A stretch of DNA of 64,000 bases from Planctomycetes bacterium GWF2_41_51 (GCA_001825665.1 MHXZ01000018.1:972-64971), one strand, 5' to 3'. Counted from the first letter of the stretch, positions 13,968 to 58,073 are shown. Notes: generated from the letters alone by a model not told the origin. Numbers and translations: made by a program.

Positions 13968-13969
13968 TT

Positions 13970-14748: not shown

Positions 14749-14796
14749 TTGACAGCATTTTTTTGTATTATAATACTTCGTTATATGGCGAAGTAT
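14749..14796 (+). promoter_or_regulatory. Sigma70-type promoter (TTGACA ... TATAAT) overlapping an 8-bp inverted repeat (candidate ArsR operator)
   Basis: TTGACA at 14749-14754 with TATAAT downstream; the spacer is shorter than optimal. ATACTTCG-TTATATGG-CGAAGTAT lies at 14773-14796. Confidence 0.55.
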
Positions 14797-14806
14797 AGGA
14801 GGTAAA

Positions 14807-15166: not shown

Positions 15167-15171
15167 AGAAT

Positions 15172-15889: not shown

Positions 15890-15895
15890 TACCAA

Positions 15896-18014: not shown

Positions 18015-18047
18015 CGTTTAAACAATAAAATAGTGAAAGGAAAATAT

Positions 18048-18734: not shown

Positions 18735-18750
18735 AGAAGGAAACTTTATA

Positions 18751-19446: not shown

Positions 19447-19455
19447 AAAGGTCTT

Positions 19456-19550
19456 TATGGATTGGAATAAAAAGAATTGATGCATTTCATGAAAACCATT
19501 GTGTACTTGTCCTTGCGGCAGGCTTGTATATGATTTATACTGCTGTTTAA
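19456..19550 (+). pseudogene. Relic of a ccdA 3' end
   Basis: 19503-19550 matches the last 48 nt of ccdA (14621-14668) at 44 of 48 positions, including the stop. The upstream part (YMDWNKKN* versus YMNWNEKSKG) is degraded by a stop and a frameshift. Confidence 0.75.
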
Positions 19551-19585
19551 AGTTGTGTAACAATTTAATTTGAAAAAGAATTACA

Positions 19586-19906
19586 ATGAAGATAGGGATA
19601 ATTATTTCAACCAACGACAATGAAACATCATGGAACGCATTTAGATATGCAAACTTTGCTCTTGGCCAAAAAGATGAGGTCAAAATATTTTTGGCGGGAA
19701 AAGGAGTCGAGTATCAGTCTTTTAGCACGGAAAAATTCAATACTGTCCAGCAGGCTGAAAAATTTCTTCAGGCAGGCGGCAAAATACTCGCCTGTGGAAC
19801 CTGTATCAAATCCCGCAATCAGCAAGATTCAGAAATGTGCCCGATTAGCACGATGAAGGATATGTACGAGATTATAAAAGAAAGCGATAAAGTCGTAACT
19901 TTCTAA
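19586..19906 (+). CDS. DsrE/DsrF-like family protein
   Basis: Small Rossmann-like protein: KIGIIISTND...FLAGKGV...ILACGTC. Confidence 0.55.
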   Translation: MKIGIIISTNDNETSWNAFRYANFALGQKDEVKIFLAGKGVEYQSFSTEKFNTVQQAEKFLQAGGKILACGTCIKSRNQQDSEMCPISTMKDMYEIIKESDKVVTF

Positions 19907-19992
19907 TATCCGCGGCCTTCTTCAAAAAATTATTTTGGCAGTTAAAGGTAATGAACAATTGCAGGAATGCTCGGTCTTATCACAAAAATTGA

Positions 19993-25382: not shown

Positions 25383-25392
25383 AGGATTTTTA

Positions 25393-26493: not shown

Positions 26494-26501
26494 ACGGAGC
26501 A

Positions 26502-36201: not shown

Positions 36202-38352
36202 ATGCAGTATATAAAAAATATATTAAAAAGGACAAAGTTATTTCCTTTTATAAAGTATTTCCATTGTCTAATGTCTGAAATTAAAAAAAACGATGATATA
36301 GCAATAGTACTCAAACAACATCCTTTCATGTATTCAAACACAAGTTCCAAAAAATCTATCTATTTAAGGAAGGCTATAGCATTTGAAAAGATGTTATCCA
36401 CAATGTATCCGAGTGTTAAGAAGGATGATTTACTAGCAGGAAGGCGAACAATATATAATTTCCCAATTTATTTAACAATAAATGAATATGATTTAGCGAA
36501 CATAGGCAATCTTACTCCGAACTATAATACAGTTCTAACCAAAGGATTTAAAGGAATAAAGCAAGATGCTATCTCGGCAATGAATGACAAAAACCTGAGT
36601 TCTGATAGTAAAGATTTTTTATCTTCTGTGGTAATGGTATGTGAAAGCGTAATAAAGTTTTCGAACAGATATAGTGAAAAGCTCTTGGAGATGTCTGAAA
36701 AATATGGCGATTCTCAGCCTTCTTTAAGGCAACTGGCACAAATATGTAAAAAAATTCCTGCAGAACCAGCTACTAATTTTTATCAAGCACTACAAAGCGT
36801 ATTTTTTACAAATATGTTAATATGGTCCGAGGAACATCATCTTATTGGTTTAGGACGTTTGGATCAATATTTATGGCCTTATTACCAAAATGATATTGCG
36901 AAAGGAATTTGCACAGCAGATGAAATGTATGAGCTATCTAAACATTTTTGGAAAAGACTCAACGAAGATTTTAGAGAGAAGAGCAATGTGCTTGCTGGAG
37001 ATACGGGTCAGGCAGTTATCCTTGGCGGATTAGAGAAATCCAGAGGGGAGGATGCCAGCAATGAATTGACTTATATGTTTTTGAAAATTGCGAAGGAACT
37101 AAAACAAGTAGATCCAAAAATAGTACTAAGAGTACATTCTAAAACGCCTGAAAAATTGTGGAAAGAATCTCTCGCACTCCTCAAGTTAGGTCTAGGCTAT
37201 CCTTTATATGCAAGTGACGATGTTATTATTCCATCATTGAAATCTTTTGGATATGACTCTGAAGATGCAATAGATTATGTGGTTTCAGCGTGTTGGGAAC
37301 CTTTGATTCCAGGCAAGTCTTTTGAATTAAATAATGTTTGTAGAATAAATTTTCTGCATTGTTTAGAATCTTCAGTTAATGATGGCAAGTCTTTATTAGA
37401 TAACAGCCAAATAGGTGTTTCTGGCGGATTTCTTAAAGAATGCAATAGTTTTGAAGATTTAATTAAAAATTTAAAATCGCAAATACACTTTTTTATAAGT
37501 CAATCAGTAGAAAGGGTAAATAATCTAAGATTTGTCCCGTCTCCTTTATTTTCTGCACTAACAGCAAATTGTATTGAAAAAGGCTTAGATATTTCTAAAG
37601 GCGGTGCAAAGTACAATAATTTTGGAATACTAAATTCAGGTTTTGTCAATATGGTTAATTCTTTGATCGCTATAAAGAAACTTGTATATGAAAATAACCA
37701 AATTAGTAAAATTGATTTGCTCAAATGTTTAAAAGATGATTTTGAAAACAATATGCAATTATGTTCATATATGAAAAATCGTATTCCCAAATTTGGTAAT
37801 GATATTGACGAAGTAGATAGCATCGCATCTGAGTTAGCAGATTTCTACGGTCAGGAATGTGCTAAAGAATCAAATTCATTAGGAGGAAGATACAAAGGCG
37901 GTCTTGGAAGTGCCGATGGGTATGTTACAGATGCAAAGAAAACAGCCGCTTCATGTGATGGACGTAAATTGGGGGAAATACTGACTGTTAATTTTTCGCC
38001 GGCAGCGGGAACGGTTCAGAATGGCTTAACTGCTGTAGTAAATTCTATTTCTAAAATCAATTTTAGAAAAGTATTCAATGGTTCTATTTTGGATTTAAAG
38101 CTGTCTCCTTCATTCTTTACCGAAGAGAAATATCTCGACAAACTTGTACTATTTCTCAAAGTAGCTATGCGCAAATGCGAGGAGATTCAGTTCAATGTAG
38201 TTAATTCACAAACGCTGAAAGATGCAAAAAACAATCCTGATCAATATCGAGATCTAATTGTAAGGGTTTGGGGTTTTAGTGCTTATTTTGTTGATTTACC
38301 TGAAGAATATCAGAATCATATAATTGAGAGATCTGAACATGATATCCAGTAA
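36202..38352 (+). CDS. Glycyl radical enzyme (PFL2/eliminase-like family)
   Basis: C-terminal glycyl-radical motif LIVRVWGFSAYFVDL, Cys-loop SACWEPLIPGKS (CxE type), and the conserved AVILGG and NFSPAAGT blocks. Confidence 0.85.
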   Translation: MQYIKNILKRTKLFPFIKYFHCLMSEIKKNDDIAIVLKQHPFMYSNTSSKKSIYLRKAIAFEKMLSTMYPSVKKDDLLAGRRTIYNFPIYLTINEYDLANIGNLTPNYNTVLTKGFKGIKQDAISAMNDKNLSSDSKDFLSSVVMVCESVIKFSNRYSEKLLEMSEKYGDSQPSLRQLAQICKKIPAEPATNFYQALQSVFFTNMLIWSEEHHLIGLGRLDQYLWPYYQNDIAKGICTADEMYELSKHFWKRLNEDFREKSNVLAGDTGQAVILGGLEKSRGEDASNELTYMFLKIAKELKQVDPKIVLRVHSKTPEKLWKESLALLKLGLGYPLYASDDVIIPSLKSFGYDSEDAIDYVVSACWEPLIPGKSFELNNVCRINFLHCLESSVNDGKSLLDNSQIGVSGGFLKECNSFEDLIKNLKSQIHFFISQSVERVNNLRFVPSPLFSALTANCIEKGLDISKGGAKYNNFGILNSGFVNMVNSLIAIKKLVYENNQISKIDLLKCLKDDFENNMQLCSYMKNRIPKFGNDIDEVDSIASELADFYGQECAKESNSLGGRYKGGLGSADGYVTDAKKTAASCDGRKLGEILTVNFSPAAGTVQNGLTAVVNSISKINFRKVFNGSILDLKLSPSFFTEEKYLDKLVLFLKVAMRKCEEIQFNVVNSQTLKDAKNNPDQYRDLIVRVWGFSAYFVDLPEEYQNHIIERSEHDIQ

Positions 38353-39253
38353 CTGTCTGATATTCGATATAAAAAGATTCGCGATATCTGATGGTCCGGA
38401 GATAAGAACAACCATTTTTTTTAAAGGATGCCCATTGAAATGTCCGTGGTGTCACAACCCCGAAGGTATTTCATTCAGACAGGAGTTTTTTTGGAGAAGA
38501 ACAAAATGTTCAGAATGCAATGAATGCATTCGTATCTGCCCGCATGGATATGATCCTAAAGATGTGAAACGATTAAATGAAAAATTTGAAGAATGCTTAA
38601 ATTGTAGAAAATGTGTTGATATCTGTCCTACCGGAGCAATTACTATAATCGGAAAAGAAATCGAATTGGCAGATCTAATTGAGTTGATAAGCAGAGATAT
38701 CGATTATTATGCGGATAGCGGAGGCGTGACGTTTTCAGGAGGAGAACCGCTTGCACATATGTCATATTTGCAGCGTGCATTAGAAGAATGTAAACGCATC
38801 GGAGTCAACACTTGTATTGAAACTTCCGGATTTTGTTCTAAAGAGGATTTATTGTTAATTATAGACTATGTAGATTTTTTTATGTTCGATCTAAAATTAG
38901 CAAATAAAGAAGAAAGTCAAAGAGTCATAGGGGCAAATATTGATAAAATTGTTGAAAATTTAAATATAATCACGAGCGAGAAAAAATGTGTTTTGAGACT
39001 GCCAATGATTAGAGATCTTACGGATACTAAAGAGAATATAGAACTCTTACTTGCTATATTGCGGCAAATTCCGAATAAAAAGAATTTGTCAAGAGTGGAA
39101 TTGCTGCCATATCATAAATTAGGTGAAAGCAAGTATATATGCTTAGGTAAAGAAACATTGAAAGTTTTTGAACCTTCCACAGAATCGAATCTAAATTGTA
39201 TTAAAGAAAAGATATCATCACTTAATTATAATGTCAGTATTGAGAGATTTTAA
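38339..39253 (+). CDS. Glycyl-radical enzyme activating protein (radical SAM)
   Basis: CPLKCPWCHNPE (CxxxCxxC) plus two ferredoxin-type clusters, CSECNECIRICP and CLNCRKCVDICP. Overlaps the GRE stop. Confidence 0.85.
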   Translation: MISSNCLIFDIKRFAISDGPEIRTTIFFKGCPLKCPWCHNPEGISFRQEFFWRRTKCSECNECIRICPHGYDPKDVKRLNEKFEECLNCRKCVDICPTGAITIIGKEIELADLIELISRDIDYYADSGGVTFSGGEPLAHMSYLQRALEECKRIGVNTCIETSGFCSKEDLLLIIDYVDFFMFDLKLANKEESQRVIGANIDKIVENLNIITSEKKCVLRLPMIRDLTDTKENIELLLAILRQIPNKKNLSRVELLPYHKLGESKYICLGKETLKVFEPSTESNLNCIKEKISSLNYNVSIERF

Positions 39254-44951: not shown

Positions 44952-45559
44952 TAAGTAATTTAACAAAAAGTTATGCTCCACAAGCGGCTGTTTTACATAT
45001 CCAAGGAATTTCCACAGGATTTATAAGTTCTTTAGGGAAGAGATTTGTAACGACATTGTACGAAGCTATTGCGGAGGATAAAAATAGTTTTGGATTTGTT
45101 GCTGTTGAAGATGATAAAGTATTAGGCTTTGTTGCTTTTTCGACCAATTTGTCAAAATTATACAAATATGTAATATTAAAAAAAGGTTTTAAGTTTGTTT
45201 TTGTACTTGCTAAAAAAATGCTATCTTTACAGGTAATCAATAAAATATTGCATAATATTTTTTATCCTTCAAAAATGGCGAAGATGGATTTGCCGGATGC
45301 CGAACTCCTTTCAATAGTAGTTGCAACTGAAGGACGTGGAAAAGGAATAGCGAAACAGCTTGTTGATGCAGGTTTTGAAGAATGTAGAAAACGCGGCATT
45401 GATAAAGTTAAAGTATTGGTAGCAGCTGATAATGAAATTGCAAACAAGTTATACCAGAAATGTGGATTTGAAAAATTTAAACAAATTGATAGTCACGGTA
45501 TTTTAAGCAATATTTATGTCATGGATTTGATAAAAGGCGATCACAATGGGAAAAAATAA
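44948..45559 (+). CDS. GNAT-family N-acetyltransferase
   Basis: VATEGRGKGIAKQL acetyl-CoA motif. ATGA overlap with the upstream GT. Confidence 0.7.
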   Translation: MISNLTKSYAPQAAVLHIQGISTGFISSLGKRFVTTLYEAIAEDKNSFGFVAVEDDKVLGFVAFSTNLSKLYKYVILKKGFKFVFVLAKKMLSLQVINKILHNIFYPSKMAKMDLPDAELLSIVVATEGRGKGIAKQLVDAGFEECRKRGIDKVKVLVAADNEIANKLYQKCGFEKFKQIDSHGILSNIYVMDLIKGDHNGKK

Positions 45560-46568
45560 GAAGGTTGGTATTGCTGTAATAATTGTGATTATTTTCATAA
45601 TCTTAATATTTAATGCCAACTCCAAAAGTAATCTTATCCGTCAGATGCAAGGTCCTATCGAAGGAACTGAAAGTGTTTTGACCAGCGGCAATAACCTTAT
45701 TGTTATTTCAAAAAATAATCATACTTTTACCTGGCAATGGGATAATCTCAGAAAATGGCCGATGGTCGCAAAGCCTAATGCTGCTTTTATAACGCCTGTA
45801 TTTGATAATAAAATTGTTTATAATCTTTCTAATTCAGGAAAGCTAATATTAACCGACCTCAAAGCAGAAAAAGAAATTTCAAGTTTATCGCTGCCTTATG
45901 GCTCAGAACCTAAACGGGTTAAAACTTCTTCAAACCATAATTTTGGCATAGTTTCTTTTATTGAAAATGATGTTTTAAAATTAGCTCTGTTTGATTCAGC
46001 TTTAAAAGATTTATCTATTGTCTTCCAAAAAGATACAAATGAAGAAAAATTCACATTGAATGATTTTGATATTACCGACGGCGCTGATTTGATTGCCGGC
46101 ACAGGCAAAAAAGATAAGGCATGGATTTTTGTAAAAGATATTAAAAATGACAAAATAGTATTTGAAAAAACTTTTGATGAGTATAATCAATTTACAATTG
46201 TAGAGTTTTCGCCGGATGGTAAAACCATTTATGTGGCTGAAAAAGTAAGATTCATTCTTGCTTTGGACTCACAAACCGGAGCAGTTGTGCGTATTTATGA
46301 AATGCCTGAATATCAAACTCCTGCTCATCAAAAGCAAAATATCTCATGTCTCGCAATAAGCCCGGATAACAAAGTTTTAGCCGTAGATACAGAGCCAGCC
46401 TGTACAATTTGGTTTTGGGACATCGCCTCTGGTAAAAAAATTGATGAAATACATGCCAGCGACCTAACCGTTTCAGATATCGCTTTCTCACCAGATTCAA
46501 AATATCTTGCAACAGGCTGTTTGGTCAGTCCCGAAATCAAAATCTGGAAAGTTCCTCAGTTGAAATAA
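45546..46568 (+). CDS. Membrane-anchored WD40/beta-propeller repeat protein
   Basis: N-terminal TM helix and repeated xxSPDGKxLAxx blades ([33 protein letters not shown]). Confidence 0.6.
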
Positions 46569-46576
46569 CAAATCAA

Positions 46577-48205
46577 ATGCCTCAAAAAACAGCAATAATC
46601 ATTGGTGCAGGACCAGCAGGTCTAACTGCCGCTTTCGAGCTGCTCGATAAGACAGATATTAAGCCGATAATATTTGAACAAACCGGCGATATTGGCGGAA
46701 TCTCAAAAACCGTCAACTATAAAGGCAATCGCATCGATATTGGCGGTCATCGGTTCTTCTCTAAATCAGACAAGGTGATGAATTTCTGGCTCAATTTAAT
46801 GCCGATTCAAACATCACCAGCTAAAGACGATATTCTTCTTGACAGAAATTTGCCTCAAGTTGAATATAATAAAACGCTCGAAGCCGACCCCCAAAAAGAT
46901 GATAAAGTTATGCTTATTCGTGAAAGGCTTTCGCGAATTTTATTCTTGAGGAAGTTTTTTGATTATCCGATATCTCTTACTCTCGATACCGTTTTTAATT
47001 TAGGTGTTTTCAGAACAATAAAAATCACTCTGAGTTATTTAAAGGCCCGAGCGTTTCGAATTAAGCATGAAAAATCGCTGGAGGATTTTCTAATTAATCG
47101 TTTCGGCAGGGAATTGTACAAAACATTTTTCAAGGATTACACCGAAAAAGTCTGGGGAATAACCTGCGACAAGATTAATCCGCAATGGGGTGCGCAAAGG
47201 ATCAAAGGCCTTTCAATCACACGAGCTATAATACATGCAATAAAAGCGATTATTTATAGGGATAAATCTATAGGTCAAAAAGAAGTTGAAACAAGCCTTA
47301 TAAGTCAATTCTTATACCCTAAATTCGGCCCCGGTCAGTTGTGGGAAATTCTCGCTGATATTATTAAGTCAAAAGGCGGACAGATATTTCTGAATAACAA
47401 AGTCGTTGGACTGGAACAACAAAGTAATAAAATTGCATCAGTAACAGTCTGTGATGAAAAAACAAAAGAATTGAAAAAATATCCGGCCGACTTCGTTTTT
47501 TCAACAATGCCTGTAAAAGAATTAATTGAATCTATCGGACAGAATGTTCCTCAGGATGTAAAAGAAATTGCGGCAGGTTTATGTTACCGTGATTTTGTAA
47601 CAGTAGGGCTTTTAGTTAAAAAACTCAAAATTAAAAATAATACCAATATAAAAACATTGAATAATATTGTGCCTGATAATTGGATTTACATTCAGGAAAA
47701 AGATGTAAAAATCGGTAGACTTCAGATTTTCAATAACTGGAGTCCGTATATGGTCGCTGATGAAAATAATGTCTGGCTCGGTCTCGAATATTTTTGTAAT
47801 GAAGGTGATGAACTCTGGAATATGTCCGATGAGCAATTTGGAAGATTTGCAATTTCTGAGCTTGAAAAAATCGGAATTATTGATTCTGCTGATGTTCTCG
47901 ATAATGTGGTTATAAGAGTTCCAAAGACCTATCCCGCGTATTTTGGCAGTTATGACAGATTTGATGTTGTAAGGAATTATACAGATAAAATAAGCAATCT
48001 TTTCTTAGTCGGCAGAAACGGAATGCACCGCTATAATAATCAGGACCATTCGATGCTTACCGCAATGACCGCCGTCGAAAATATTGTCAAAGGCGTGGAA
48101 AGCAAAGATAATATCTGGCAGGTCAATGCTGAAGAAGATTACCATGAAACAAAGATGACCTCGGTTGAAAATCTTACGGATGCTTATACAGCCGAAAGAA
48201 AATAA
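46577..48205 (+). CDS. FAD/NAD(P)-dependent oxidoreductase (amine-oxidase/desaturase-like)
   Basis: [16 protein letters not shown] dinucleotide motif. Confidence 0.65.
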
Positions 48206-48210
48206 TTTTC

Positions 48211-49533
48211 ATGACTGACAGTTTTAAAAAAATTATTCCGCAAAATGATAAACAGGCTTTCTGGTTATCGTTTTTTTTATGCCTCTTTTTTAGTTCAATC
48301 ATTATTTTTGTTGTTGCACCTGTTACTGGTTTGAGTAAAAATTTCGGATCGGGAAACGATGGTTATATTCAAATTGCCAGAAATTTCGTTGCCGGGAATG
48401 GTTATGTTTTCGAGAAAGGCGGGCCGCCTGTGTTTCACCGTCCTCCAATGTACCCCTTATTCCTTGTACCAGTTGCATTGTTTCCGGAATATTTACAACG
48501 GTATATTATTATTATTCCGCAAAGCATTCTCGTAGGCTTTATAGGAATGATGATTTTTAAAATTGCAAGGCAGTTGTATAACCAGAATATTGCATCGATT
48601 GCATTGCTGCTTTTCCTGATTAATCCCTGGGTTTATTGGAACGCTAAAAATCCAATGACCGCAATTTTACAGACCTTTCTTTATTTGATATTTACATATT
48701 GCGTTGGTAAAAATTTATTTGCCGTCAATGGTTTTAAGCCATATCGTTATGGTTTATTTCTTGGATTGTCAGGCGCAGCTTTGATTTTGTCTCACGCCGC
48801 AATGCTGCCGGTGGCTATATTGTTGATTGGAGTAATATTTTTTGTGTCTGTATTTAAATGCCCCAAAAAGATATATACGGCAGTAATTTCGATTGTGCTT
48901 ATTGTCATTCTTGTCGCTCCCTGGACATACAGAAACTGGATTGTATTCCAAAAGTTCATTCCCGTTGCGGGCGGCGGTGGATTAGCTTTCTTCAACGGAA
49001 ATGTTCATTGGCAGGGCGTTGAAGAAGGACCGCAAAAAAAAGGAGAATCTTATATTGATGCCAGCGCAAGGGTAATCGGAATCGATGGTAACGAAGCGAC
49101 ATTGACTCACTGGAAGGGATTTAAGAATATCGAGCACGAGCAAATCGCAAATCAACAGATGACCGAATTTATAAAAAATAATCCAGGATTATTTGCCAAA
49201 AAAATTACATTAAATGCAATTGAATATTATTTCCCAGCATTTACAAAGAATTTCCTTGCGATAAAATCGGTTACAATTGAAAGCTGGGCTTTATCTCTGT
49301 TTCATTTGTTTTTATGGATTACTGCCTTAGCTGGTGTTTTCTTTTACAGAAAAAAAGGATTGCTTCTTATTCTGTGTATTATACTTTACGATATCTGGTA
49401 TTTCCCATTTGCAACTTTCATTGGCCATTCCCTCTACACGCTTGGCACGATTCCTTTTCTTTCTATTCTTGCCGCAGCCGGAATTATCAGTTTATTCCGC
49501 CTTTTCTCGTCTATTTCCGCTCGTTCCCGCTAA
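48211..49533 (+). CDS. GT-C fold glycosyltransferase (ArnT/PMT, GT39/83-like)
   Basis: Multi-TM protein with a first-loop motif (FHRPPMYPLFL). Confidence 0.6.
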   Translation: MTDSFKKIIPQNDKQAFWLSFFLCLFFSSIIIFVVAPVTGLSKNFGSGNDGYIQIARNFVAGNGYVFEKGGPPVFHRPPMYPLFLVPVALFPEYLQRYIIIIPQSILVGFIGMMIFKIARQLYNQNIASIALLLFLINPWVYWNAKNPMTAILQTFLYLIFTYCVGKNLFAVNGFKPYRYGLFLGLSGAALILSHAAMLPVAILLIGVIFFVSVFKCPKKIYTAVISIVLIVILVAPWTYRNWIVFQKFIPVAGGGGLAFFNGNVHWQGVEEGPQKKGESYIDASARVIGIDGNEATLTHWKGFKNIEHEQIANQQMTEFIKNNPGLFAKKITLNAIEYYFPAFTKNFLAIKSVTIESWALSLFHLFLWITALAGVFFYRKKGLLLILCIILYDIWYFPFATFIGHSLYTLGTIPFLSILAAAGIISLFRLFSSISARSR

Positions 49534-50677
49534 TTCCCGCATTTTCTTTCTTAATCGCTCCTCTTAATCCTTCCATTTTTAAATACCCCTTCCGCCAAAT
49601 TATTAGTGCCGATAACGTGAAAACAACAACATATACTATAACCGCGTATCTGGTTCTTATCTGGCTCATTGCCACACCTATAAACGCATACACTCCCGCA
49701 AGCACATAGCAGATGAAAACTGTTTTCTTCAGAGAAAAGCCTCGGTCAATCATCTGGTCGTAAATATGCCCGCGATCTGATACAAAAAGCGGTCTCTTAT
49801 TCAGCCATCTTCTTGCCAGTGCCACCGCGGTATCAAGTATCGGCAGCCCGAATACGACCAGCGATGCAAGCCACCATCTTGGATATGCCCGTGCGAATAA
49901 CATCATTATTGCCGCAACAATAAAGCCCAGCAGCATACTCCCCGCATCTCCCATAAATATTTTTGCGGGTGCTTTGTTAAAAGGCAGAAAACCGCAAACC
50001 CCTCCCACAAGCGAAAGGCATACTATCATTCTCACCGGGTCACGTACCTCGCTCCAGCCCCACGTTGCAAGATGTACAGAAAGGAAAAGCAGAGCGATTG
50101 TTATAATTGCTGTTACTCCTGCGCATAATCCATCAAGTCCATCGAGAAGATTCAAAGAGTTGGTTGCTCCGAGAACTGTAAAAACTACAATAGGCACACC
50201 TATACCCCATTCAAGCCAATGCGGTAATGATAATCCAAAAGGTGCTAAAAATGGATTCAAAGCCGGCATTATACCTGCCGCTATCAATGGTATTGATGCG
50301 ATTATCTGCCCGGCCATTTTATGCGATGGCCTCAGATTATAAACATCATCGATTAATCCTACAAAACACGCGATCGCAGCGCCTGTCAATACGGACATCA
50401 GCCAGCGGTTCAATGCCGCATCTTTAATATACAATACAGAGGATAATATTCCGATTGCAAATCCTGCCAGTATTCCGATGCCGCCAAGATAAGCTATTGG
50501 TTCTTTATGTGTCTTTACCGTATCATCAGGCTTATCAACAATGCCGTATCGTAACGCAGTTTTTTTGCTCAGCCATGTCCCTGCTGCTCCGCAGATAAAC
50601 GAAATAGCCAATACGGGCCAAAATTGAAATGTCCAGCTCAACGGCCTTTCCGGCCCTACGAAAGAATCGAATATCAT
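49511..50677 (-). CDS. Polyprenyl-phosphate HexNAc-1-phosphate transferase (WecA/MraY family)
   Basis: NLLDGLDGL motif, FMGDAGS, and about 10 TM helices. Confidence 0.8.
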   Translation of the reverse strand: MIFDSFVGPERPLSWTFQFWPVLAISFICGAAGTWLSKKTALRYGIVDKPDDTVKTHKEPIAYLGGIGILAGFAIGILSSVLYIKDAALNRWLMSVLTGAAIACFVGLIDDVYNLRPSHKMAGQIIASIPLIAAGIMPALNPFLAPFGLSLPHWLEWGIGVPIVVFTVLGATNSLNLLDGLDGLCAGVTAIITIALLFLSVHLATWGWSEVRDPVRMIVCLSLVGGVCGFLPFNKAPAKIFMGDAGSMLLGFIVAAIMMLFARAYPRWWLASLVVFGLPILDTAVALARRWLNKRPLFVSDRGHIYDQMIDRGFSLKKTVFICYVLAGVYAFIGVAMSQIRTRYAVIVYVVVFTLSALIIWRKGYLKMEGLRGAIKKENAGISGNERK

Positions 50678-50680: not shown

Positions 50681-51694
50681 TTATTTCCCTGATAAATCTT
50701 TCTCTCTTACCCAGACTTCTGCATCATATCTAAGCATTGCGAGATTGTTTTCAAAGCCGTCGAATTCGATTGATGGTTTTTTACCGATTAGTTGTGCAAG
50801 TATCCACTTCGGAAAATCCGCTCCAGCCTTTATGCTCAATGGTGCTCCTCCGCCGAACCGTGGATTGATTTCTATGAATTTTATTTTGTTGTCTTTTGTA
50901 AGTATTAGCTGTACGGTTATTACGCCCGGACCTGCTCCAAGTTTTTCGACGAGCAATGCGGTCTGTTGCATTATCTGGGAATTTTTTATAATTTTGCTTT
51001 TGCTTACTTCTCCCGCTCTTGTCTCAATTCTAATTCGCGGAACTACACATCGAACTTTCAAGTTGAAATCCACGAAAACATCACAGGTAAACTCTTGACC
51101 TGCGATAAATTCCTGAACGATGCAGTTCGGGATTTTCTTGCTATAAAAAGAAAGTTCCTGACGATTTTTTACGATTGCGTTTCCTCTGCTTGCATATCCG
51201 TCCCATGGTTTTAAAAAGAGAGGATATTTTAATTTTGGATTGCGTAAAGCCTGTTGTGCATTCTGTGTTAAGGGAGTCTCAAAACCATTTTGAATCAGGA
51301 ACTGGTATGTTTCGCGTTTATCCTGACAAATGTTTACAACATCGGGTTTGGAAACCAGCACTGTGCATCCTGCCGCTGAGAATTTATCTTTATTTTCAGC
51401 AAGAATATGCAAATCCAAATCCACCGTTGGCACGATAAGATTTACTTTGTTTTGTTTTACTATTTCCAGCAATTCTTTTATATAATGTTGGTGGTTGACA
51501 GATTTGACGATAAATTTTCCATCGCACAAATGAAGGGCCGAGCTTAATACAGACCTGTCTGTACCGAAAATCTTACAATCGAGTTTAAGCTGTTTTGCTG
51601 CTCTTCTAAAACTATTTAAAAGAGATACTCTTCTGCCTATACATGTGAAAAGTATATTAAAATTCTTGCTTTTTATTTTTTTCTGACTTACCAT
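50681..51694 (-). CDS. ATP-grasp domain protein
   Basis: Pre-ATP-grasp and ATP-grasp pattern: LFLKPWDGYASRG, VQEFIAGQEFTCDV, EINPRFGGG. Confidence 0.7.
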   Translation of the reverse strand: MVSQKKIKSKNFNILFTCIGRRVSLLNSFRRAAKQLKLDCKIFGTDRSVLSSALHLCDGKFIVKSVNHQHYIKELLEIVKQNKVNLIVPTVDLDLHILAENKDKFSAAGCTVLVSKPDVVNICQDKRETYQFLIQNGFETPLTQNAQQALRNPKLKYPLFLKPWDGYASRGNAIVKNRQELSFYSKKIPNCIVQEFIAGQEFTCDVFVDFNLKVRCVVPRIRIETRAGEVSKSKIIKNSQIMQQTALLVEKLGAGPGVITVQLILTKDNKIKFIEINPRFGGGAPLSIKAGADFPKWILAQLIGKKPSIEFDGFENNLAMLRYDAEVWVREKDLSGK

Positions 51695-51800
51695 AACTTA
51701 TAGTACCCAAAAAACTTAGTTAAGTTTAACCCATTATAGGACTATTGTCCATATATTTGATTTCAGTTGTATATATCGACCATTTTTGAGAGATTTTTAA

Positions 51801-52490
51801 GTGATAAAATGTATCGCATTTGATATGGATGACACCCTCTACGATGAGATAGACTATTATAAAAGTGGTTTCCAAGAGGTATCCCGCACGATTGCGTCCG
51901 ATTTTGGCCTAAATGCCTTGGATGTGTTTGACACCCTTTGGACTATTTTTAATGGCGGTAACCATAATGCGGCCTTTGACGCAGCGGCAAAAAAATTCGG
52001 AATAGTTTTCGATGATAATTATACCGCCAAACTCGTTGATATCTTTCGTAATCATAAACCTGATATTGCTCTTCCTTCCGACAGCAGACAGGTTTTAACG
52101 GATTTGAAAAAGCACTATAAGCTCGGATTGGTAACTGATGGCTGGCTTCCCGCTCAGGAATATAAGGTAAAAGCATTGGGGCTTGATGAATTTCTGGATT
52201 GCATTATATACACCGAAAAACTTGGTGCAGAACACTGGAAACCTTCGCCCAAAGGTTTTGAAATTTTATTATCTGATGTTGGAGTATCTGCTTCTGAAAG
52301 CATTTATGTTGGTGATAATCTTAAAAAAGATTTCATAGCGCCAAATGAAATGGGCTTTAAAACAATTTGGATTTCACGTAAAAATAAAATCCATTTGGAA
52401 CCCGCTCCTTCACCCCAGGCAGTTCCGCAATTTGAAATTCAGTCTATAACGGAATTGATTGATTTATTGAGAAAAATTAATGCTGTATAA
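51801..52490 (+). CDS. HAD-superfamily hydrolase
   Basis: FDMDDTLY motif I, LVTDG motif II and VGDNLKKD motif III/IV. GTG start. Confidence 0.7.
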   Translation: MIKCIAFDMDDTLYDEIDYYKSGFQEVSRTIASDFGLNALDVFDTLWTIFNGGNHNAAFDAAAKKFGIVFDDNYTAKLVDIFRNHKPDIALPSDSRQVLTDLKKHYKLGLVTDGWLPAQEYKVKALGLDEFLDCIIYTEKLGAEHWKPSPKGFEILLSDVGVSASESIYVGDNLKKDFIAPNEMGFKTIWISRKNKIHLEPAPSPQAVPQFEIQSITELIDLLRKINAV

Positions 52491-53085
52491 ATATTTAAAA
52501 AGTTTGTTTGATTTTATGTTCTCTTTAATTGCAATTCTAATATTGTTGCCGGTATTCGTCTGTTTAATTATTTTGATTAAAGTAACCGGCAGGGGACCGG
52601 CTATTTTTAAACAAATTCGTGCCGGAAAAAATGGAGAGCCTTTTACCTTTTATAAATTCCGCACCATGAAAACCGATGTCGAGCCGTTTGGCCCAAGCCC
52701 CAAAACCCGCCAAGACCCAAGATTGACAAAAGTTGGTATTTTCCTCAGAAAATACTCTTTTGACGAACTTCCTCAGCTTTTTAACGTATTAAAGGGCAAT
52801 ATGAGTCTTGTTGGACCAAGGCCTTTGTACATTTCGCAAATAGCTGAGTGGAACCAACAGCAGAAAAAAAGACTTCTTGTAAAGCCCGGTATTACAGGCC
52901 TCGCCCAAATTAATGGCCGAGGCGAACTTACCATCGAAGAGAAGCTTGCGTTTGACGTTGAATATGTAGAAAAAATTTCGTTTATGCTCGATGCTAAAAT
53001 CGTTTTCTTTACGATTTTGCATGTTCTGACAGGTAAAAGCATTTACGAAAAAAGGTATTCTAAGACGCAGGAAACCAGAGGATAA
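52480..53085 (+). CDS. Monotopic phosphoglycosyl transferase (PglC/WbaP C-terminal type bacterial sugar transferase)
   Basis: KFRTM, DELPQLFNVLKGNMSLVGPRP motifs. Confidence 0.85.
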   Translation: MLYKYLKSLFDFMFSLIAILILLPVFVCLIILIKVTGRGPAIFKQIRAGKNGEPFTFYKFRTMKTDVEPFGPSPKTRQDPRLTKVGIFLRKYSFDELPQLFNVLKGNMSLVGPRPLYISQIAEWNQQQKKRLLVKPGITGLAQINGRGELTIEEKLAFDVEYVEKISFMLDAKIVFFTILHVLTGKSIYEKRYSKTQETRG

Positions 53086-53117
53086 TTATTTTTTGTCATT
53101 TGATTGAAGGAAGTACA

Positions 53118-54263
53118 ATGAAGCCAAAGATACTATCTAAACTGCGGTATGTTACAAAACTTGACGACATTGCGGGCCTTTCCGACTCTGACCGCATCCA
53201 GACAAAAAAAGTTGCGGAAAAATATCCTTTCATGGCCAATGATTATTATCTTTCACTTATCGATTGGAATGACCCAAAAGACCCCATTCGAAGAGTAATA
53301 ATTCCCTGTCCAGACGAACTTCAGGAGTGGGGCAGATTAGACCCTTCCGATGAGCATAAATATACGATTTTGCCGGGTCTGGAACATAAATATAATACTA
53401 CGGCTCTTTTGCTTGTAAGCAGCAATTGCGGCGGTATCTGCCGTTATTGTTTCAGGAAAAGGGTCTTCCTTGATTCCCAACCGGATTATTTGCAAGATGT
53501 TGATGCTGCAATGGGGTATATTTCCGCACATAAGGAAATCACAAACGTTCTGCTAACCGGCGGCGACCCATTGACTTTGCCCACAGAGCGTCTCGAAGAG
53601 ATTATCAGCAAACTCAGACAAATTGAGCATGTGCATATTATAAGGCTCGGAACGCGTATGCCGGTTTATTATCCATACAGGATAACTAAAGATAAAAAAT
53701 TCCTGCAGATGCTTGAAAAATATACTACCGCCCGCAATAAAATATATGTGATGACGCATTTTGTTCACTCTAACGAACTGACAGATGTTGCCGTTGATGC
53801 CTGTAATATGATTCAAAAGACCGGCGTCAGAATGACAAATCAGGTTCCGCTTTTACGCGGAATTAATGATGACCCCGAGGTGCTTGCTAAATTATTCTCG
53901 GATCTTTCTTTCTGTGGTATAGTCCCGTATTATATTTTCCAGTGCAGGCCGTCCAGCGGCAACAAGGCATATACAGTACCCATTGAGGAAGGTTATAATA
54001 TTGTCGAACGTGCAAAAGCGAAAGTTTCAGGTCTTGCAAAACGCGCAAGATTTGTTATGAGTCATTCAACCGGGAAAATTGAAATTATAGGTAAAACCGA
54101 TTCTAATGTTTATATGAAATATCACAGGGCGGCAAATGATGACGACAGCGGTAAATTTATGATTCTTAAAAGCAATCCGAAAGCTTGCTGGTTCGACGAT
54201 TACGAAGAAATTGCCGCCGATTATCCTCTCAGTAAACCTTACAGGCTTTACGGCCCCGAATAA
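53118..54263 (+). CDS. KamA-family radical SAM aminomutase (lysine 2,3-aminomutase-like)
   Basis: CGGICRYCFRKR cluster motif, TGGDPL, and overall KamA-like layout. Confidence 0.75.
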   Translation: MKPKILSKLRYVTKLDDIAGLSDSDRIQTKKVAEKYPFMANDYYLSLIDWNDPKDPIRRVIIPCPDELQEWGRLDPSDEHKYTILPGLEHKYNTTALLLVSSNCGGICRYCFRKRVFLDSQPDYLQDVDAAMGYISAHKEITNVLLTGGDPLTLPTERLEEIISKLRQIEHVHIIRLGTRMPVYYPYRITKDKKFLQMLEKYTTARNKIYVMTHFVHSNELTDVAVDACNMIQKTGVRMTNQVPLLRGINDDPEVLAKLFSDLSFCGIVPYYIFQCRPSSGNKAYTVPIEEGYNIVERAKAKVSGLAKRARFVMSHSTGKIEIIGKTDSNVYMKYHRAANDDDSGKFMILKSNPKACWFDDYEEIAADYPLSKPYRLYGPE

Positions 54264-55639
54264 TGAAAAAATATTTTTCAATAATTATTGCTGTATTCGC
54301 GTCTCAGCTTTTTGCTCTTGAACCGTCGCAGATTCTCATTATTGCAAATGCAGATGTTAATGAATCTGTTCAGGTTGCCGAATATTATTGTCAGAAAAGA
54401 GCGGTGCCTCTGACAAACATTCTCAAAATACCTCTTGGCAAAACATTATCAGAGCAAATGAGTAGAAAAGCTTATGATCATGTTCTTGCTTCTGCCGTAA
54501 GAAAAGAAATTCAGGAAAGCAGAAAACCCTATGAAATCAAATGTCTGCTTACCGTTTATGGCGTTCCGATAAAAGTCGGCTCTGCGGATGCTTTGAAAGA
54601 TTCAGAAAAGATTATCCCGCAGTTGACCGAGGTGCTCACAGAAAAAAATAAAAATTTCGATGCCGCTCTTGACCGTTTGGCAACATTCGGCAGGGCGGAA
54701 ATGGTCGTTTCGAATCAGCCCCGTGAAAAATTTGAAGATGTGATAAAAAGCCTTAATGAAAAAATCAAACAGGCTGAAAAAAGAATTCAGTATTTGGATA
54801 ACGCCAATGAAAGAACAAAACAGCTTGCCCAACTATCAGAACTTTCAAAAAATATTATAGAACTCGCCAACTCAATTTCCCGCATAAAAACGGAAATCGA
54901 CAAATACAAAGGCGTCGAAACTTTCGCTTCGATTGACAGCGAGCTTTCAATGGTGTTATTTGACAATTACGATTTATACCGCTGGCAGGAAAATGAGTTG
55001 AAAGATTCGATTTTATTGCTTCCTTCAAAAACTCTGATGGTCGCACGGCTCGATGGCCCATCTGAAAAAATTGCCTCCCGTCTCATTGATAAAGCAATAG
55101 CATCAGAAAAAAACGGCCTTTCCGGTAATGCCTACATTGACGCAAGAGGTATGAACATCAGCGGTCAGTTGTCAAAGTATTCGTATGAATTTTATGATAA
55201 AAACCTGAATACTTTTCATGATATGCTTAAAAATCGTACCGCGATGAATGTTATTTTCGAAAATACATCCTCACTTTTCGCTCCAAATTCCTGTCCGAAC
55301 ACCGCTATTTACTGCGGCTGGTACAGTGTAAAAAAATATATCGATTCTTTCGAGTTTGCTTCCGGCGCGATTGGATATCATATTGCCAGTTTCGAAGCAA
55401 TGGATTTGCGAAATGCCTCAAGTTCGAATTGGTGTCCCTCAATGCTTACCCACGGAATTACCGCGACTTTAGGCCCTGTCAACGAGCCATATCTCCATTC
55501 ATTTCCGCTGCCTACCGATTTTTTCGGTGAACTGCTCGATGGCAAATGTCTGGTTGAAGCCTACTTCAGAACAAATCCGTATAATTCATGGCAACTCGTT
55601 CTCATCGGCGACCCGCTCTACAAAATCAAAATTAAATAA
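54263..55639 (+). CDS. Hypothetical exported protein
   Basis: Signal peptide. The C-terminal GPVNEPYL...SWQLVLIGDPLY block recalls a conserved uncharacterised family, but the assignment is not certain. Confidence 0.35.
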   Translation: MKKYFSIIIAVFASQLFALEPSQILIIANADVNESVQVAEYYCQKRAVPLTNILKIPLGKTLSEQMSRKAYDHVLASAVRKEIQESRKPYEIKCLLTVYGVPIKVGSADALKDSEKIIPQLTEVLTEKNKNFDAALDRLATFGRAEMVVSNQPREKFEDVIKSLNEKIKQAEKRIQYLDNANERTKQLAQLSELSKNIIELANSISRIKTEIDKYKGVETFASIDSELSMVLFDNYDLYRWQENELKDSILLLPSKTLMVARLDGPSEKIASRLIDKAIASEKNGLSGNAYIDARGMNISGQLSKYSYEFYDKNLNTFHDMLKNRTAMNVIFENTSSLFAPNSCPNTAIYCGWYSVKKYIDSFEFASGAIGYHIASFEAMDLRNASSSNWCPSMLTHGITATLGPVNEPYLHSFPLPTDFFGELLDGKCLVEAYFRTNPYNSWQLVLIGDPLYKIKIK

Positions 55640-56351
55640 CCTTTTTCCGAAGACTGAACTGCATGATAATAAGTGTTAATAAAATAGATGTCAAAGCCAG
55701 CCGAATTTCCTGATTTCCGAGCGGCTTATCTGTAGCCGCCGCATATATTTTTACAATAACGATCGATGCGAAGGGACACAAAAAAAATAAGAAAAAATCT
55801 TTCAGTTTTCTTATATTTAGTTTGCGAATATGCAAAAGATACATTGACCATAAAATAGTAATCACTGCAAACCCGGCCAAATAAAAAATATCCTCAACAA
55901 TCGACCCTTGTTTTATTAGCTTTGATTTTACAATCGCCGGCAAAAACACCGGGCTTATAGAAAGCAGTACCATAGCCGTGTTATATCCCGATGTAAACGT
56001 TACTATCAGCATCGCCGCGACTGCTCCCAGTGCATCCGATACAAGGTCTAAAGTATCCATCGACCGACCCGCAATAAAATTCTGTGCAAGCTCATCCATA
56101 ATTCCATAGATTGCCAAAATCGCGGATATTATCCACGGCCTTGCTTTTCGCCAGTTGGCTTTTAAGCCGAAGCTGCTTGCCTGCCAAAATAAAAGCCCCA
56201 GAGCCAGATATGCCGCGAAATGCATAGTTTTATCGCTTACGCCCATCTGCCTTACCCACATCGGCACAGGAATATGCGTAATAACAAATAGGCAAACCCA
56301 GTACAGTAAAAGGATTGCCGTAAATACCTTCTTTTCGAGCGTTAGTTTCAT
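55632..56351 (-). CDS. VanZ-like family membrane protein
   Basis: DKTMHFAAYLALG and DELAQNFIAGRSMDTLDLVSDALG motifs. Confidence 0.6.
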   Translation of the reverse strand: MKLTLEKKVFTAILLLYWVCLFVITHIPVPMWVRQMGVSDKTMHFAAYLALGLLFWQASSFGLKANWRKARPWIISAILAIYGIMDELAQNFIAGRSMDTLDLVSDALGAVAAMLIVTFTSGYNTAMVLLSISPVFLPAIVKSKLIKQGSIVEDIFYLAGFAVITILWSMYLLHIRKLNIRKLKDFFLFFLCPFASIVIVKIYAAATDKPLGNQEIRLALTSILLTLIIMQFSLRKKVI

Positions 56352-56423: not shown

Positions 56424-56747
56424 ATGTTTGAGTCTGTTGTAAACGAACTTTCAAAAGAGCCTGTCTGGATGACGATTGGTCTTTTCGGCCAGCTCGTCTT
56501 CGGAGGCAGATTCGTCCTCCAGTGGATTGCCAGCGAAATTAAAAAGCGTTCACACATCCCTGTTGCGTTCTGGTATCTTTCTCTTGTCGGCAGTATTATT
56601 TTGCTCGCTTACAGTTTGCATCGCAGAGATCCTATTTTCATCCTCGGTTTTTCGCTCAACACAGTTATTTATGTTCGCAACCTGCACCTTATCTCTAAAC
56701 ACAAAAAAACCGGCGATATTACTTCAATTGAAAATGACGAAGACTGA
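56424..56747 (+). CDS. Lipid-A-biosynthesis N-terminal (LAB_N) domain membrane protein
   Basis: GQLVFGGRFVLQWIASE..IPVAFWYLSLVGS..LAYSLHRRDPIFILG. Confidence 0.55.
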   Translation: MFESVVNELSKEPVWMTIGLFGQLVFGGRFVLQWIASEIKKRSHIPVAFWYLSLVGSIILLAYSLHRRDPIFILGFSLNTVIYVRNLHLISKHKKTGDITSIENDED

Positions 56748-56759: not shown

Positions 56760-58073
56760 ATGAATATGAAAAAAATATTGTGCGTTTTTGTTTTAATGGT
56801 TTCTTTTTCGGCTTTATGTTTCTCTCAAACTCCGCGTCCTGCCGCTGCCAAACCTTCAGTAACAATGCAGTTGCCCCAGCCTCAAACCAACAGCCGCTTT
56901 TCTCTTGAACAGGCGATAGAAAACCGTCGAAGCATACGCCAGTTTACCGAAGAACCTTTGACAATCGCTCAACTCGGCCAGATATGCTGGGCTGCGCAGG
57001 GCATCACAGAACCGAACAAGGGGATGCGAACCGCTCCCTCAGCCGGTGCTATATACCCAATCGAACTATACGTTGTCCTCCCGGATGGCTTGTATCTTTA
57101 CCGGCCCGCGACTCACGATTTAAGCAAACTCATTACCGGCGATTTGCGCAAGTCTGTTTCAAATGCCTCTTTCAATCAGAGATTTGTCCAGACCGCTCCC
57201 TGCACTTTCATTATCGCAGGCTCAATTAAAAAAGTCGAAGCCAGGTACCGCAACCGTGGTGCGAAATTCACGTACATCGAAGCCGGTCATATCGCGCAGA
57301 ATATTCAGCTCCAGTCCACCGTTCTCGGCCTCGGCTCCGTTCCCATCGGCGTTATAGATGAAAAAACAATCGCACAGATTTGCAAGCTGCCCCAGGGCCT
57401 TGAAGTTTTATATATTGTCCCCGTTGGAAACCCGACCGAAAAACCAGTTCTAACTCCTGCCGCCTCTTCCGCACCAGCTCCCGTAGTGGTTTATCCCTCT
57501 GCTCAGGCTGATTTACGCGCAAAGCGTGTCGCCATCATTATCCCAAGCAGGTATTTCAAAGACAGCGACTATTATGCCGTTGAGCAGGCTCTTACAAGAG
57601 AAGGGGTTCAGAAAGTTATCGCTGGTACAGTTTTAAACGAAGTAAGAGGTATCGAAGTAAGAGGTACTCGAAAAAATATTCTAAAACCAACCGTACTTGT
57701 ACGTGATTTAAAGATAGACGAATATGATGCTTTCGTTTTCATTGGCGGTACTGCCATAGGCGGAAATTTTAATAACCAGGATTTAATCAATCTGGCACGT
57801 TCAGCTTTTCAGGCTGATAAAATCCTCGCTGCTATTTCTGATGCTCCTGTTATTTTTGCTTATGCCGATATCGTCAGAGGGAAAAATGTAACCGCTGCAT
57901 TATCTGAACGTCACAGGCTTGTAAATGCAGGCGCCAATTGGCAGAAATCCCTGCTCGTAACAGATGGCAATTTGATTACCGCTGGAGATTCTGCTTCGGT
58001 GGTCTCAGATATAGCTTCACGTTTCGCAGTCGAGCTTATCGCCCAGCTTCGAAAACAGCGAACAGCAAATTAA
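56760..58073 (+). CDS. Exported fusion: SagB-type nitroreductase-like domain plus DJ-1/PfpI-like domain
   Basis: Signal peptide. RRSIRQF...APSAGAIYPIELYV (SagB/nitroreductase-like). The C-terminal class-I glutamine-amidotransferase-like fold has LAAISDAP at the nucleophile elbow. Confidence 0.55.
   Translation: MNMKKILCVFVLMVSFSALCFSQTPRPAAAKPSVTMQLPQPQTNSRFSLEQAIENRRSIRQFTEEPLTIAQLGQICWAAQGITEPNKGMRTAPSAGAIYPIELYVVLPDGLYLYRPATHDLSKLITGDLRKSVSNASFNQRFVQTAPCTFIIAGSIKKVEARYRNRGAKFTYIEAGHIAQNIQLQSTVLGLGSVPIGVIDEKTIAQICKLPQGLEVLYIVPVGNPTEKPVLTPAASSAPAPVVVYPSAQADLRAKRVAIIIPSRYFKDSDYYAVEQALTREGVQKVIAGTVLNEVRGIEVRGTRKNILKPTVLVRDLKIDEYDAFVFIGGTAIGGNFNNQDLINLARSAFQADKILAAISDAPVIFAYADIVRGKNVTAALSERHRLVNAGANWQKSLLVTDGNLITAGDSASVVSDIASRFAVELIAQLRKQRTAN

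Follow-up and report, generated by a model that had tools for sequence, protein, structure and literature searches.

The described systems closest to the genes considered here are, on the one hand, enzymes of the KamA family, comprising the lysine 2,3-aminomutases KamA (C. subterminale, structure 2A5H) and AblA, the glutamate 2,3-aminomutase Eam, and EpmB (YjeK), which modifies elongation factor P (EF-P). On the other hand, there are ligases of the ATP-grasp superfamily, such as Cj1438C of C. jejuni HS:2, which amidates the C6 of glucuronic acid (GlcA) with serinol phosphate or ethanolamine phosphate before the HAD phosphatase Cj1435 carries out the dephosphorylation (PMC11800397). Genes of both kinds meet in a 64,000-nucleotide stretch of DNA from Planctomycetes bacterium GWF2_41_51 (GCA_001825665.1 MHXZ01000018.1:972-64971), the whole of which is referred to as the window. 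Here, a putative carboxylate-amine ligase of the PylC-like/PRK12767 ATP-grasp type (50681-51694, - strand) is arranged divergently, near 51.7 kb and across an AT-rich intergenic region of 106 bp separating two operons (51695-51800), to + strand genes for a HAD-IA phosphatase (51801-52490), a small monotopic PglC-type phosphoglycosyl transferase (PGT) of 201 aa (52480-53085) and a KamA-family radical S-adenosylmethionine (SAM) protein of 381 aa (53118-54263). The initial annotation proposed that a β-amino acid made by the KamA-like enzyme is ligated by the ATP-grasp enzyme, the HAD phosphatase assisting, to a uronic acid or amino sugar of a glycan. The four genes with their coordinates and strands, the CGGICRYCFRK motif and the divergent layout are all confirmed by open reading frames (ORFs) and hidden Markov model (HMM) matches far beyond chance. 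The gene families and the glycan context of the ligase stand as well, whereas the functional link between ATP-grasp and KamA does not. With modest confidence, we read the region as three separately conserved Phycisphaerae envelope-glycan modules placed side by side, with a facultative KamA-family protein of an arginine-bearing type (Arg-type) that would make a non-basic, free β-amino acid, and not as a single pathway of β-aminoacylation. The three modules are considered independent because the ATP-grasp/HAD and KamA counts assort separately across 80 + 80 surveyed loci; the functional link was over-reaching in that gene proximity in one genome is insufficient according to the comparative data.

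Membership of the window protein in the KamA family holds (TIGR00238, 239.7 bits; cutoff 199.2), but none of the subfamilies to which it might have belonged accommodates it, all their cutoffs being missed. The best yet weak equivalog score is obtained for glutamate 2,3-aminomutase (TIGR04368, 237.5 bits against 650), followed by arginine 2,3-aminomutase (TIGR04468, 234.3 against 600), AblA/lysine 2,3-aminomutase (TIGR03820, 231.5 against 525.4, less than half the cutoff), AblA-like-2 (221 against 396) and, lowest of all, EpmB (TIGR03821, 195.4 against 369.3). As judged by its sequence, the protein is a KamA-family member outside all characterised subfamilies. Comparison with 2A5H (E 2.5e-56) brings out what it shares with KamA/AblA, namely the radical-SAM barrel, the CxxxCxxC motif (CGGICRYCFRK aligning to CSMYCRHCTRR), Arg134, the PYY motif and a probable pyridoxal 5'-phosphate (PLP) lysine; CxxxCxxC and Arg134 are kept in all clade members. 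Unlike KamA/AblA, it has neither the C-terminal Zn-Cys motif nor LAM_C (PF12544), its Pfam matches being Radical_SAM and Fer4_12 alone, whereas the Asp-type relatives do match LAM_C. Asp293 of 2A5H, located in P286-YYIYQC-D293, aligns to an arginine in PYYIFQCR of the window protein. Arginine occupies this position in 17/17 clade members, and thus in all bacterial and archaeal members sampled, whereas genuine KamA (Fusobacterium, Bacillus) and E. coli EpmB keep the aspartate. R277 and G319-K320 are invariant among the 17 orthologues. The latter contains the candidate PLP lysine (Lys337 of 2A5H), found 14 residues past a conserved S-G as compared to 15 in KamA and EpmB, in a shortened loop where automatic alignments are unstable; the Asp330/Lys337 loop was placed by its spacing from the S-G motif together with the predicted strand-turn-strand of the AlphaFold2 (AF2) model. 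Given that the nine residues preceding the lysine in R-F-V-M-S-H-S-T-G-K include no Asp or Glu, Asp330 is lost, its position falling to Ser315/His316 when the FV strand is taken as anchor and to Met314 under a colinear alignment. A literature search on the specificity residues yielded nothing relevant.

β-Lysine, considered in the initial annotation as a product, is contradicted because both aspartates binding the ε-amino group (Asp293, Asp330) are gone, the former to an invariant arginine and the latter from a segment devoid of acidic residues. Lysine and arginine are very unlikely as substrates, and the enzyme is likely to use an amino acid of acidic or neutral character, glutamate being the foremost, though unproven, guess. 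The window protein resembles Eam in having a basic residue at 293 and in having lost the second aspartate, as would fit the logic of binding an acidic side chain. It differs in that Eam-type proteins combine Lys293/Asn330 with an xxNAPGGxGK loop, LAM_C and scores of 514-556 bits, as opposed to Arg, Ser-His and a short loop. With EpmB it has in common that it is a short KamA-family protein lacking the long C-terminal domain, yet EpmB keeps Asp293 and an acidic residue at 330, and E. coli epmB adjoins efp, while the window gene has no efp or epmA neighbour.

The Arg-type proteins constitute a branch of considerable extent. From an exhaustive search of 1.84 billion representatives, 4705 relatives were retrieved, and because the best representative is only 51% identical to the window protein, the window's clade of 53-100% identity corresponds to about one 50% cluster. 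Among the 150 nearest 50%-identity representatives, the Asp293 column shows R in 59, D in 49, M in 8 and K in 7, and a [MI]SHxxGK motif is present in 48 of the R-type ones. Representatives with Lys293 and IINAPGGxGK (Asn330) reach 556 and 514 bits on the model of glutamate 2,3-aminomutase and stay more than 140 bits lower on every other one, so that a basic residue at 293 is seen to accompany an acidic substrate; Ruzicka & Frey are said to have reported the Lys/Asn signature of Eam in 2007. Arg-type representatives, by comparison, score flat at 146-247 bits on every equivalog model. In a midpoint-rooted neighbour-joining tree of 120 sequences, 44/44 Arg-type proteins lie in one 60-leaf clade without any Asp-type member, and the 52 Asp-type proteins, among them the references for KamA and EpmB, are without exception on the other side. 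The tight subclade around the window protein, with at least about 600 matches in species-representative genomes, is common to methanogens, ANME-type archaea, Phycisphaerae, Desulfobacterota, Spirochaetes and others, and database labels of branch members read 'KamA family' or, wrongly, 'lysine 2,3-aminomutase'. It is this large, coherent and unmodelled Arg-type branch of the lysine-aminomutase family that constitutes the novelty, not glycan chemistry.

Fusion proteins join a Ddl-like ATP-grasp (P0411) or a nonribosomal peptide synthetase (NRPS) condensation domain (P0415) to an Arg-type KamA domain, and Ddl-like ATP-grasps to LAM-type KamA (P0439, P0444, P0451, P0494); they are Rosetta-stone links of radical-SAM aminomutases to amide-forming enzymes. 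On an S. meliloti plasmid (NZ_CP088116.1 260633-279613; L174), an Arg-type KamA homologue of 37% identity is flanked by two ATP-grasp genes annotated 'biotin carboxylase family', with an ectB-like transaminase, aspartate-semialdehyde dehydrogenase (asd), an amino-acid kinase and a LuxR regulator upstream, in what looks like an uncharacterised small-molecule cluster; the annotation of the homologue as 'lysine 2,3-aminomutase' is doubtful because Asp293 is replaced by Arg. The rhizobial cluster and P0411 resemble the window in their Arg-type signature (GRP / MSHYTGKIEI) and in physical coupling to amide-forming ligases, but identity is 37-39%, the ATP-grasps are Ddl-like or biotin-carboxylase-like, and the context is that of small molecules, not of glycans. 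The transfer of what an aminomutase makes to an ATP-dependent ligase is a genuine theme, although in these cases the ATP-grasp subfamilies are others and the contexts are those of small molecules. In P0366, a KamA-family domain is fused to a RidA/L-PSP domain.

The independence of the modules emerges from gene neighbourhoods examined from both sides. Species-representative genomes were scanned with an alignment of KamA orthologues; a relative was encoded in 596 of at least 600 candidate stretches, and the best 80 loci (53-66% identity) were taken as the KamA-selected set. A small PGT is present in 45/80 of them, nearly always directly upstream and co-directional, VanZ in 42/80, TIGR03790 in 39/80 (directly downstream) and a WecA-like GT4 in 19/80 (divergent upstream). 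ATP-grasp matches amount to 4/80, with orthologue level reached in L052 only (60%), and the one HAD match is a non-orthologue of 29% identity, leaving HAD orthologues at 0/80; clustering the neighbours de novo gave the same picture. The second set consisted of 80 metagenomic loci with ATP-grasp orthologues of 61-78% identity, in which tblastn detected a KamA-like gene in 0/80, and in 0/33 of those having an upstream flank of at least 4.5 kb. Conservation of the pairing, which had been set beforehand as a check on the proposed ligation, is therefore limited to an ATP-grasp orthologue in one of the 80 KamA loci and to no KamA in the 80 ATP-grasp loci.

Loci otherwise identical to the window extend this result. 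The exact arrangement GT4-ATPgrasp|HAD-PGT-TIGR03790 is found without KamA in at least seven cases (L087, L090-L092, L094, L175, L176), with |VanZ likewise kept in the first five. Four loci had been picked via TIGR03790 alone and are thus unbiased toward ATP-grasp and KamA. Two of these (L175, L176) show the full ATP-grasp/HAD arrangement and no KamA, L178 has PGT-TIGR03790|VanZ-LAB_N with neither ATP-grasp/HAD nor KamA, and L177 retains TIGR03790-VanZ only; VanZ occurs without KamA in L175, L177 and L178. A rough cross-check of three homologue lists returned about 13 contigs with ATP-grasp and TIGR03790 but no top-120 KamA match, as against 7 with all three. ATP-grasp (together with GT4) plus HAD, and the KamA-like gene, are two accessory features assorting independently on a PGT-TIGR03790-VanZ-LAB_N scaffold. 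In the 26-29 KamA loci outside Planctomycetes, archaea included (Desulfobacterota, Spirochaetes, Calditrichota, KSB1, Gemmatimonadota, Methanoculleus, Methanosarcinales/ANME-2, Thermoplasmata), no conserved neighbour was found. Conserved partners of KamA in these loci were sought by clustering at two stringencies and by manual inspection, and the idea was discarded when genus-level synteny in Methanoculleus was all that appeared.

Two further KamA-bearing loci call for mention here. The closest KamA relative of the window protein (83% identity; L082/L083, 2945-7438) resides in a locus where HAD is absent and a paralogous PylC-like ATP-grasp, 31% identical to that of the window, comes after CapK_C-like, Bac_transf, GNAT and PALP (PLP beta-family) genes, so that this position is occupied by another accessory cassette of amino-acid type. 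A Methanosarcinales contig with a KamA-like gene (L058) carries a group II intron domain match (7978-8055, - strand; Rfam RF00029, 64.7 bits).

The ATP-grasp protein is composed of a PylC-like_N domain (PF21360; 8e-23, 80.8 bits against 27) and an ATP-grasp_3 core (PF02655; 2e-21, 76.9 against 23.2), with ATPgrasp_Ter also matched (62.2 against 29.1). On NF009405 (PRK12767.1-4, 'carbamoyl phosphate synthase-like') it scores 335.6 bits and so falls below the cutoff of 390, in a near miss that spans the full length (13-332 of 337; E 2.5e-100); the PylC (40 bits) and pseudomurein ATP-grasp models match weakly. The closest solved structures are 2PN1 (4e-35), a structural-genomics protein of unknown function representing PRK12767, and 3VOT (1e-9), the L-amino-acid ligase BL00235. 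With these and PylC, the window protein shares the PylC-like N-terminal domain and the ATP-grasp_3 core; unlike PylC and the L-amino-acid ligase, its context is glycan initiation and not pyrrolysine or dipeptide synthesis, and it has no characterised orthologue. Neighbours in the 80 ATP-grasp loci are a divergent UDP-glucose 6-dehydrogenase (48), a NusG-like antiterminator (46), GT4 (44), a PMT/TMEM260-like GT-C (26), mannose-6-phosphate isomerase (25) and a DegT aminotransferase (24), and GT4 lies co-directionally within 300 bp downstream in 40/62 loci. This company bears out the initial annotation in that the enzyme is not one of primary metabolism. From the fixed association with UDP-glucose dehydrogenase and a WecA/MraY-type transferase, we infer, reasonably in our view, that the protein is a carboxylate-amine ligase acting on a uronate or amino sugar of a glycan precursor. 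A literature search on uronate amidation by ATP-grasp enzymes in O-antigens found nothing relevant.

The HAD protein (HAD_2, PF13419, 4e-20; TIGR02253/NANP-like) is nearest to PH1655 and to HADs of the N-acylneuraminate-9-phosphatase type. It is confined to loci with adjacent ATP-grasp and small PGT genes, namely the window and L081, L084-L087, L090-L094, L116, L127, L129, L175 and L176, thus tracking the ATP-grasp-PGT adjacency in essentially every such locus, with L052 as the exception; the loci behind this co-occurrence are phylogenetically clustered. A HAD orthologue is upstream of ATP-grasp in 8/63 loci, and HAD is absent in at least 43 PGT-KamA loci that lack ATP-grasp. A nonulosonic-acid pathway was considered as an explanation of the NANP-like HAD and was rejected, no NeuB-type synthase being present in the window. 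The pairing of a ligase of the ATP-grasp superfamily with a HAD phosphatase in a uronate-polysaccharide locus recalls Cj1438C/Cj1435. BLASTP of window proteins against the supplement sequences of PMC11800397, however, returned E 0.25 for Cj1438C and E 2.3 for Cj1435, Cj1438C is a TupA-like ATP-grasp (PF14305) and Cj1435 a PF12710 HAD, and no enzymes forming serinol phosphate or ethanolamine phosphate were identified at the window locus. Orthology was rejected on these grounds, and since there is no detectable similarity and the Pfam families differ, the resemblance is one of analogy only; as an analogy, the C. jejuni pair offers a plausible working model for the ATP-grasp/HAD pair of the window.

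The proposed organisation would then be as follows. The first module is the - strand operon in which ATP-grasp is followed by the WecA/MraY-superfamily polyprenyl-phosphate sugar-1-phosphate transferase (GT4; 49511-50677). Its ATP-grasp enzyme most likely serves as an ATP-dependent ligase that amidates a uronic acid or N-acylates an amino sugar of the glycan intermediate handled by GT4. In the second module, the HAD phosphatase is translationally coupled to the PglC-type PGT on the + strand and probably serves the modification made by ATP-grasp, for example through dephosphorylation of a phosphorylated amine adduct or a sugar phosphate. The third module is the KamA-family gene, a facultative insertion into the PGT-TIGR03790-VanZ-LAB_N scaffold. 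The enzyme is predicted to be a SAM/[4Fe-4S]/PLP-dependent amino-acid 2,3-aminomutase acting on a substrate with a side chain that is acidic, or at any rate not basic, the conversion of L-glutamate into β-glutamate being the leading guess, and its product would be a free β-amino acid used independently of the neighbouring ATP-grasp.

Other explanations of the Arg-type protein itself have to be weighed against a predicted aminomutase for non-basic substrates. Membership in the KamA family, and the label 'lysine 2,3-aminomutase' that some databases attach to homologues, could suggest an ordinary lysine 2,3-aminomutase, as used in lysine fermentation or for the osmolyte N-ε-acetyl-β-lysine, or else an EF-P-modifying EpmB. 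Both appear highly improbable considering the scores for AblA (231.5 against 525 bits) and EpmB (195 against 369), the loss of the two aspartates where true KamA and EpmB keep acidic residues, a clade separate from all Asp-type sequences, and the lack of an adjacent ablB-like acetyltransferase, efp or epmA in the window and in the 80 KamA loci. The homologue does not group with EpmB, which bears out the initial annotation on this point, and the EpmB/EF-P explanation is rejected by score, residues and gene context alike. The osmolyte genes ablA and eam carry a riboswitch (PMC9337991); Rfam scans of the window and 12 standalone KamA-like loci revealed none, and osmolyte-type regulation of the KamA-like gene by such an upstream element was dismissed. 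A radical-SAM enzyme performing other chemistry on the KamA barrel, and no PLP-dependent aminomutase at all, would account for the missing LAM_C match, the flat and low scores on all aminomutase equivalogs, the shortened Gly-rich Lys337 loop that automatic alignments sometimes delete, and the low AF2 model confidence at residues 72-125 and 337-381. We regard it as improbable, given the invariant G-K at 14 residues past S-G, the retention of Arg134 (which binds the α-carboxylate) and of PYY, equivalog HMM alignments that run colinear through the lysine-loop region, and the passing of the TIGR00238 cutoff. The predicted aminomutase of non-basic specificity nonetheless has evidence to contend with: the Asp330/Lys337 loop can be aligned only to within 1-2 residues, the AF2 model (strand, tight turn, strand at the lysine loop) is modest at a pLDDT, the model's confidence score, of 68, the identity of the substrate would follow from two or three residues only, and early NMR labelling opposed an aminomutase route to β-glutamate in M. 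thermolithotrophicus (PMC1224877).

Regarding the glycan, the ligation of a KamA-derived β-amino acid by the ATP-grasp enzyme, as initially proposed, draws on several observations, most of which also count against separate modules. The ATP-grasp gene and the HAD-PGT-KamA genes share the 106-bp divergent control region within tight operons, and KamA of the window belongs to one tightly packed + strand operon with HAD and PGT. The window order of ATP-grasp, HAD, PGT and KamA recurs in L081, L084/85 and L086. L039 has a GNAT-GNAT-ATPgrasp fusion followed by GT4 and then KamA, all co-directional, and L052 shows GT4-ATPgrasp|PGT-KamA. KamA-family fusions with ATP-grasp or NRPS condensation domains (P0411, P0415, P0439 and others) and the Arg-type KamA between two ATP-grasp genes in S. 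meliloti couple the two chemistries elsewhere, and the enzymes of the locus itself yield an amino sugar as well as uronates of the GlcA and ManNAcA types. KamA moreover takes varying slots (PGT/TIGR03790, TIGR03790/VanZ, or behind the FAD oxidase), a hint that selection to some degree ties it to this neighbourhood, and loci without it might encode KamA elsewhere in the genome. The ligation is nevertheless unlikely in view of the pairing counts of 1/80 and 0/80 and of the at least seven otherwise identical loci without KamA, to which it adds that most Phycisphaerae keep ATP-grasp with GT4 and UDP-Glc dehydrogenase in the absence of KamA, that the fused ATP-grasps are Ddl-like (PF07478) and not PylC-like/PRK12767, and that archaea and other phyla carry the KamA-like gene by itself. 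A sugar decoration by β-lysyl, or by any β-aminoacyl group, is not supported. Quite improbable, in our assessment, is also a version in which the Arg-type KamA represents a new 2,3-aminomutase class, perhaps a second and independently evolved glutamate 2,3-aminomutase, that feeds Phycisphaerae envelope-glycan synthesis at the PGT-TIGR03790 locus, with ATP-grasp attaching the product in the window's sub-clade. We thus retain, at the modest confidence expressed at the outset, the reading of three side-by-side modules with a facultative aminomutase.

The implications differ accordingly. The substrate of the Arg-type branch would add a new reaction to the radical-SAM aminomutases, and Arg-type enzymes might explain pools of β-amino acids, such as β-glutamate, in anaerobes. 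If a second glutamate 2,3-aminomutase were involved, it could provide the long-unassigned route to β-glutamate in methanogens and anaerobic sediment bacteria. Were attachment by ATP-grasp in the window's sub-clade true, a β-aminoacyl sugar would arise, and a β-aminoacylated surface glycan would be unusual chemistry. The pair of ATP-grasp and WecA-type transferase beside UDP-glucose dehydrogenase, for its part, is a candidate for an amide-modified uronate in Phycisphaerae envelopes.

In the - strand operon, a 3-nt gap separates the ATP-grasp stop from the start of GT4, whose match to Glycos_transf_4 is strong (8e-38, 130.3 bits against a cutoff of 27) and whose score on the WecA equivalog TIGR02380 is below cutoff (116.8 bits against 326). 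The HAD and PGT genes of the + strand share 11 nt, and 32 nt lie between PGT and KamA as measured to the ATG at 53118. The KamA ORF opens with TTG at 53100; the ATG at 53118 is the likely start because the database protein P0001, which is 100% identical and labelled 'KamA family radical SAM protein', is 381 aa long and a GGAAG Shine-Dalgarno-like motif is found upstream. The PGT matches Bac_transf over residues 7-183 of 201 (1.2e-65, 220.8 bits) and has the single N-terminal hydrophobic segment of PglC-type enzymes, while its match to the WcaJ/WbaP models is confined to their C-terminal, catalytic portion. In the 51695-51800 spacer, matches to promoter consensus are weak and no better than shuffled expectation.

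Downstream follow the conserved scaffold genes. The stop codon of KamA overlaps the start of a TIGR03790-family gene (TAATG), implying translational coupling; the latter (54263-55639, + strand; 238.1 bits against a cutoff of 67) encodes a secreted protein with a signal peptide and a long coiled-coil insert at about residues 114-216 (AF2 pLDDT 80). The sole structural resemblance of its model, to the catalytic domain of gingipain K, is weak (E 1.6e-3, TM 0.42), and the invariant Cys351 and His373 are in reversed order relative to the caspase-type dyad; as a clue to the role of KamA, this weak gingipain/caspase-like match was set aside as uninformative. A VanZ-family membrane protein gene (55632-56351, - strand; 4.7e-7) is convergent with the TIGR03790 gene and precedes that of a small LAB_N membrane protein (56424-56747, + strand; 3.9e-30), an order kept in L081, L082, L084, L087, L175, L176 and L178. 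The next gene (56760-58073, + strand) encodes a fusion of nitroreductase and DJ-1/PfpI domains of 437 aa with a signal peptide, which all close relatives keep after LAB_N.

The two uronate-forming dehydrogenases and the DegT sugar aminotransferase to which the initial annotation referred are real (24078-27803). They belong to a large glycan locus at 22-46 kb with a TuaD-like UDP-glucose dehydrogenase, a UDP-ManNAc/GlcNAc dehydrogenase-like enzyme, WecB, the DegT aminotransferase, GDP-mannose dehydratase, Glf, a flippase and glycosyltransferases. Between the Wzx-type flippase and UDP-galactopyranose mutase, and unusual for a glycan locus, lies a pair (36202-39253, + strand) of a glycyl-radical enzyme (PFL-like plus Gly_radical, 716 aa, N-terminally short) and a radical-SAM activase. 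The former is PFL2/glycerol-dehydratase-like and falls well short of all equivalog cutoffs (best sulfopropanediol dehydratase, 381 against 1000; TIGR01774 subfamily, 464 against 678). The region 8862-21117, encoding an EamA transporter, an ArsP-type permease, a SAM methyltransferase, an SBF/Acr3-like transporter, a DsbD-like protein, a P-type ATPase and a chromate transporter, looks like one of metal/metalloid resistance unrelated to the glycan locus. Closer to the genes discussed above is a + strand trio (45546-49533) of a WD40 beta-propeller, a PRK07208-type FAD amine-oxidase-like protein (NF005546, a 'hypothetical protein' model, 878 bits) and a PMT_2-like membrane GT-C, which directly precedes GT4/ATP-grasp in L081, L084, L086, L087 and L175 as well.

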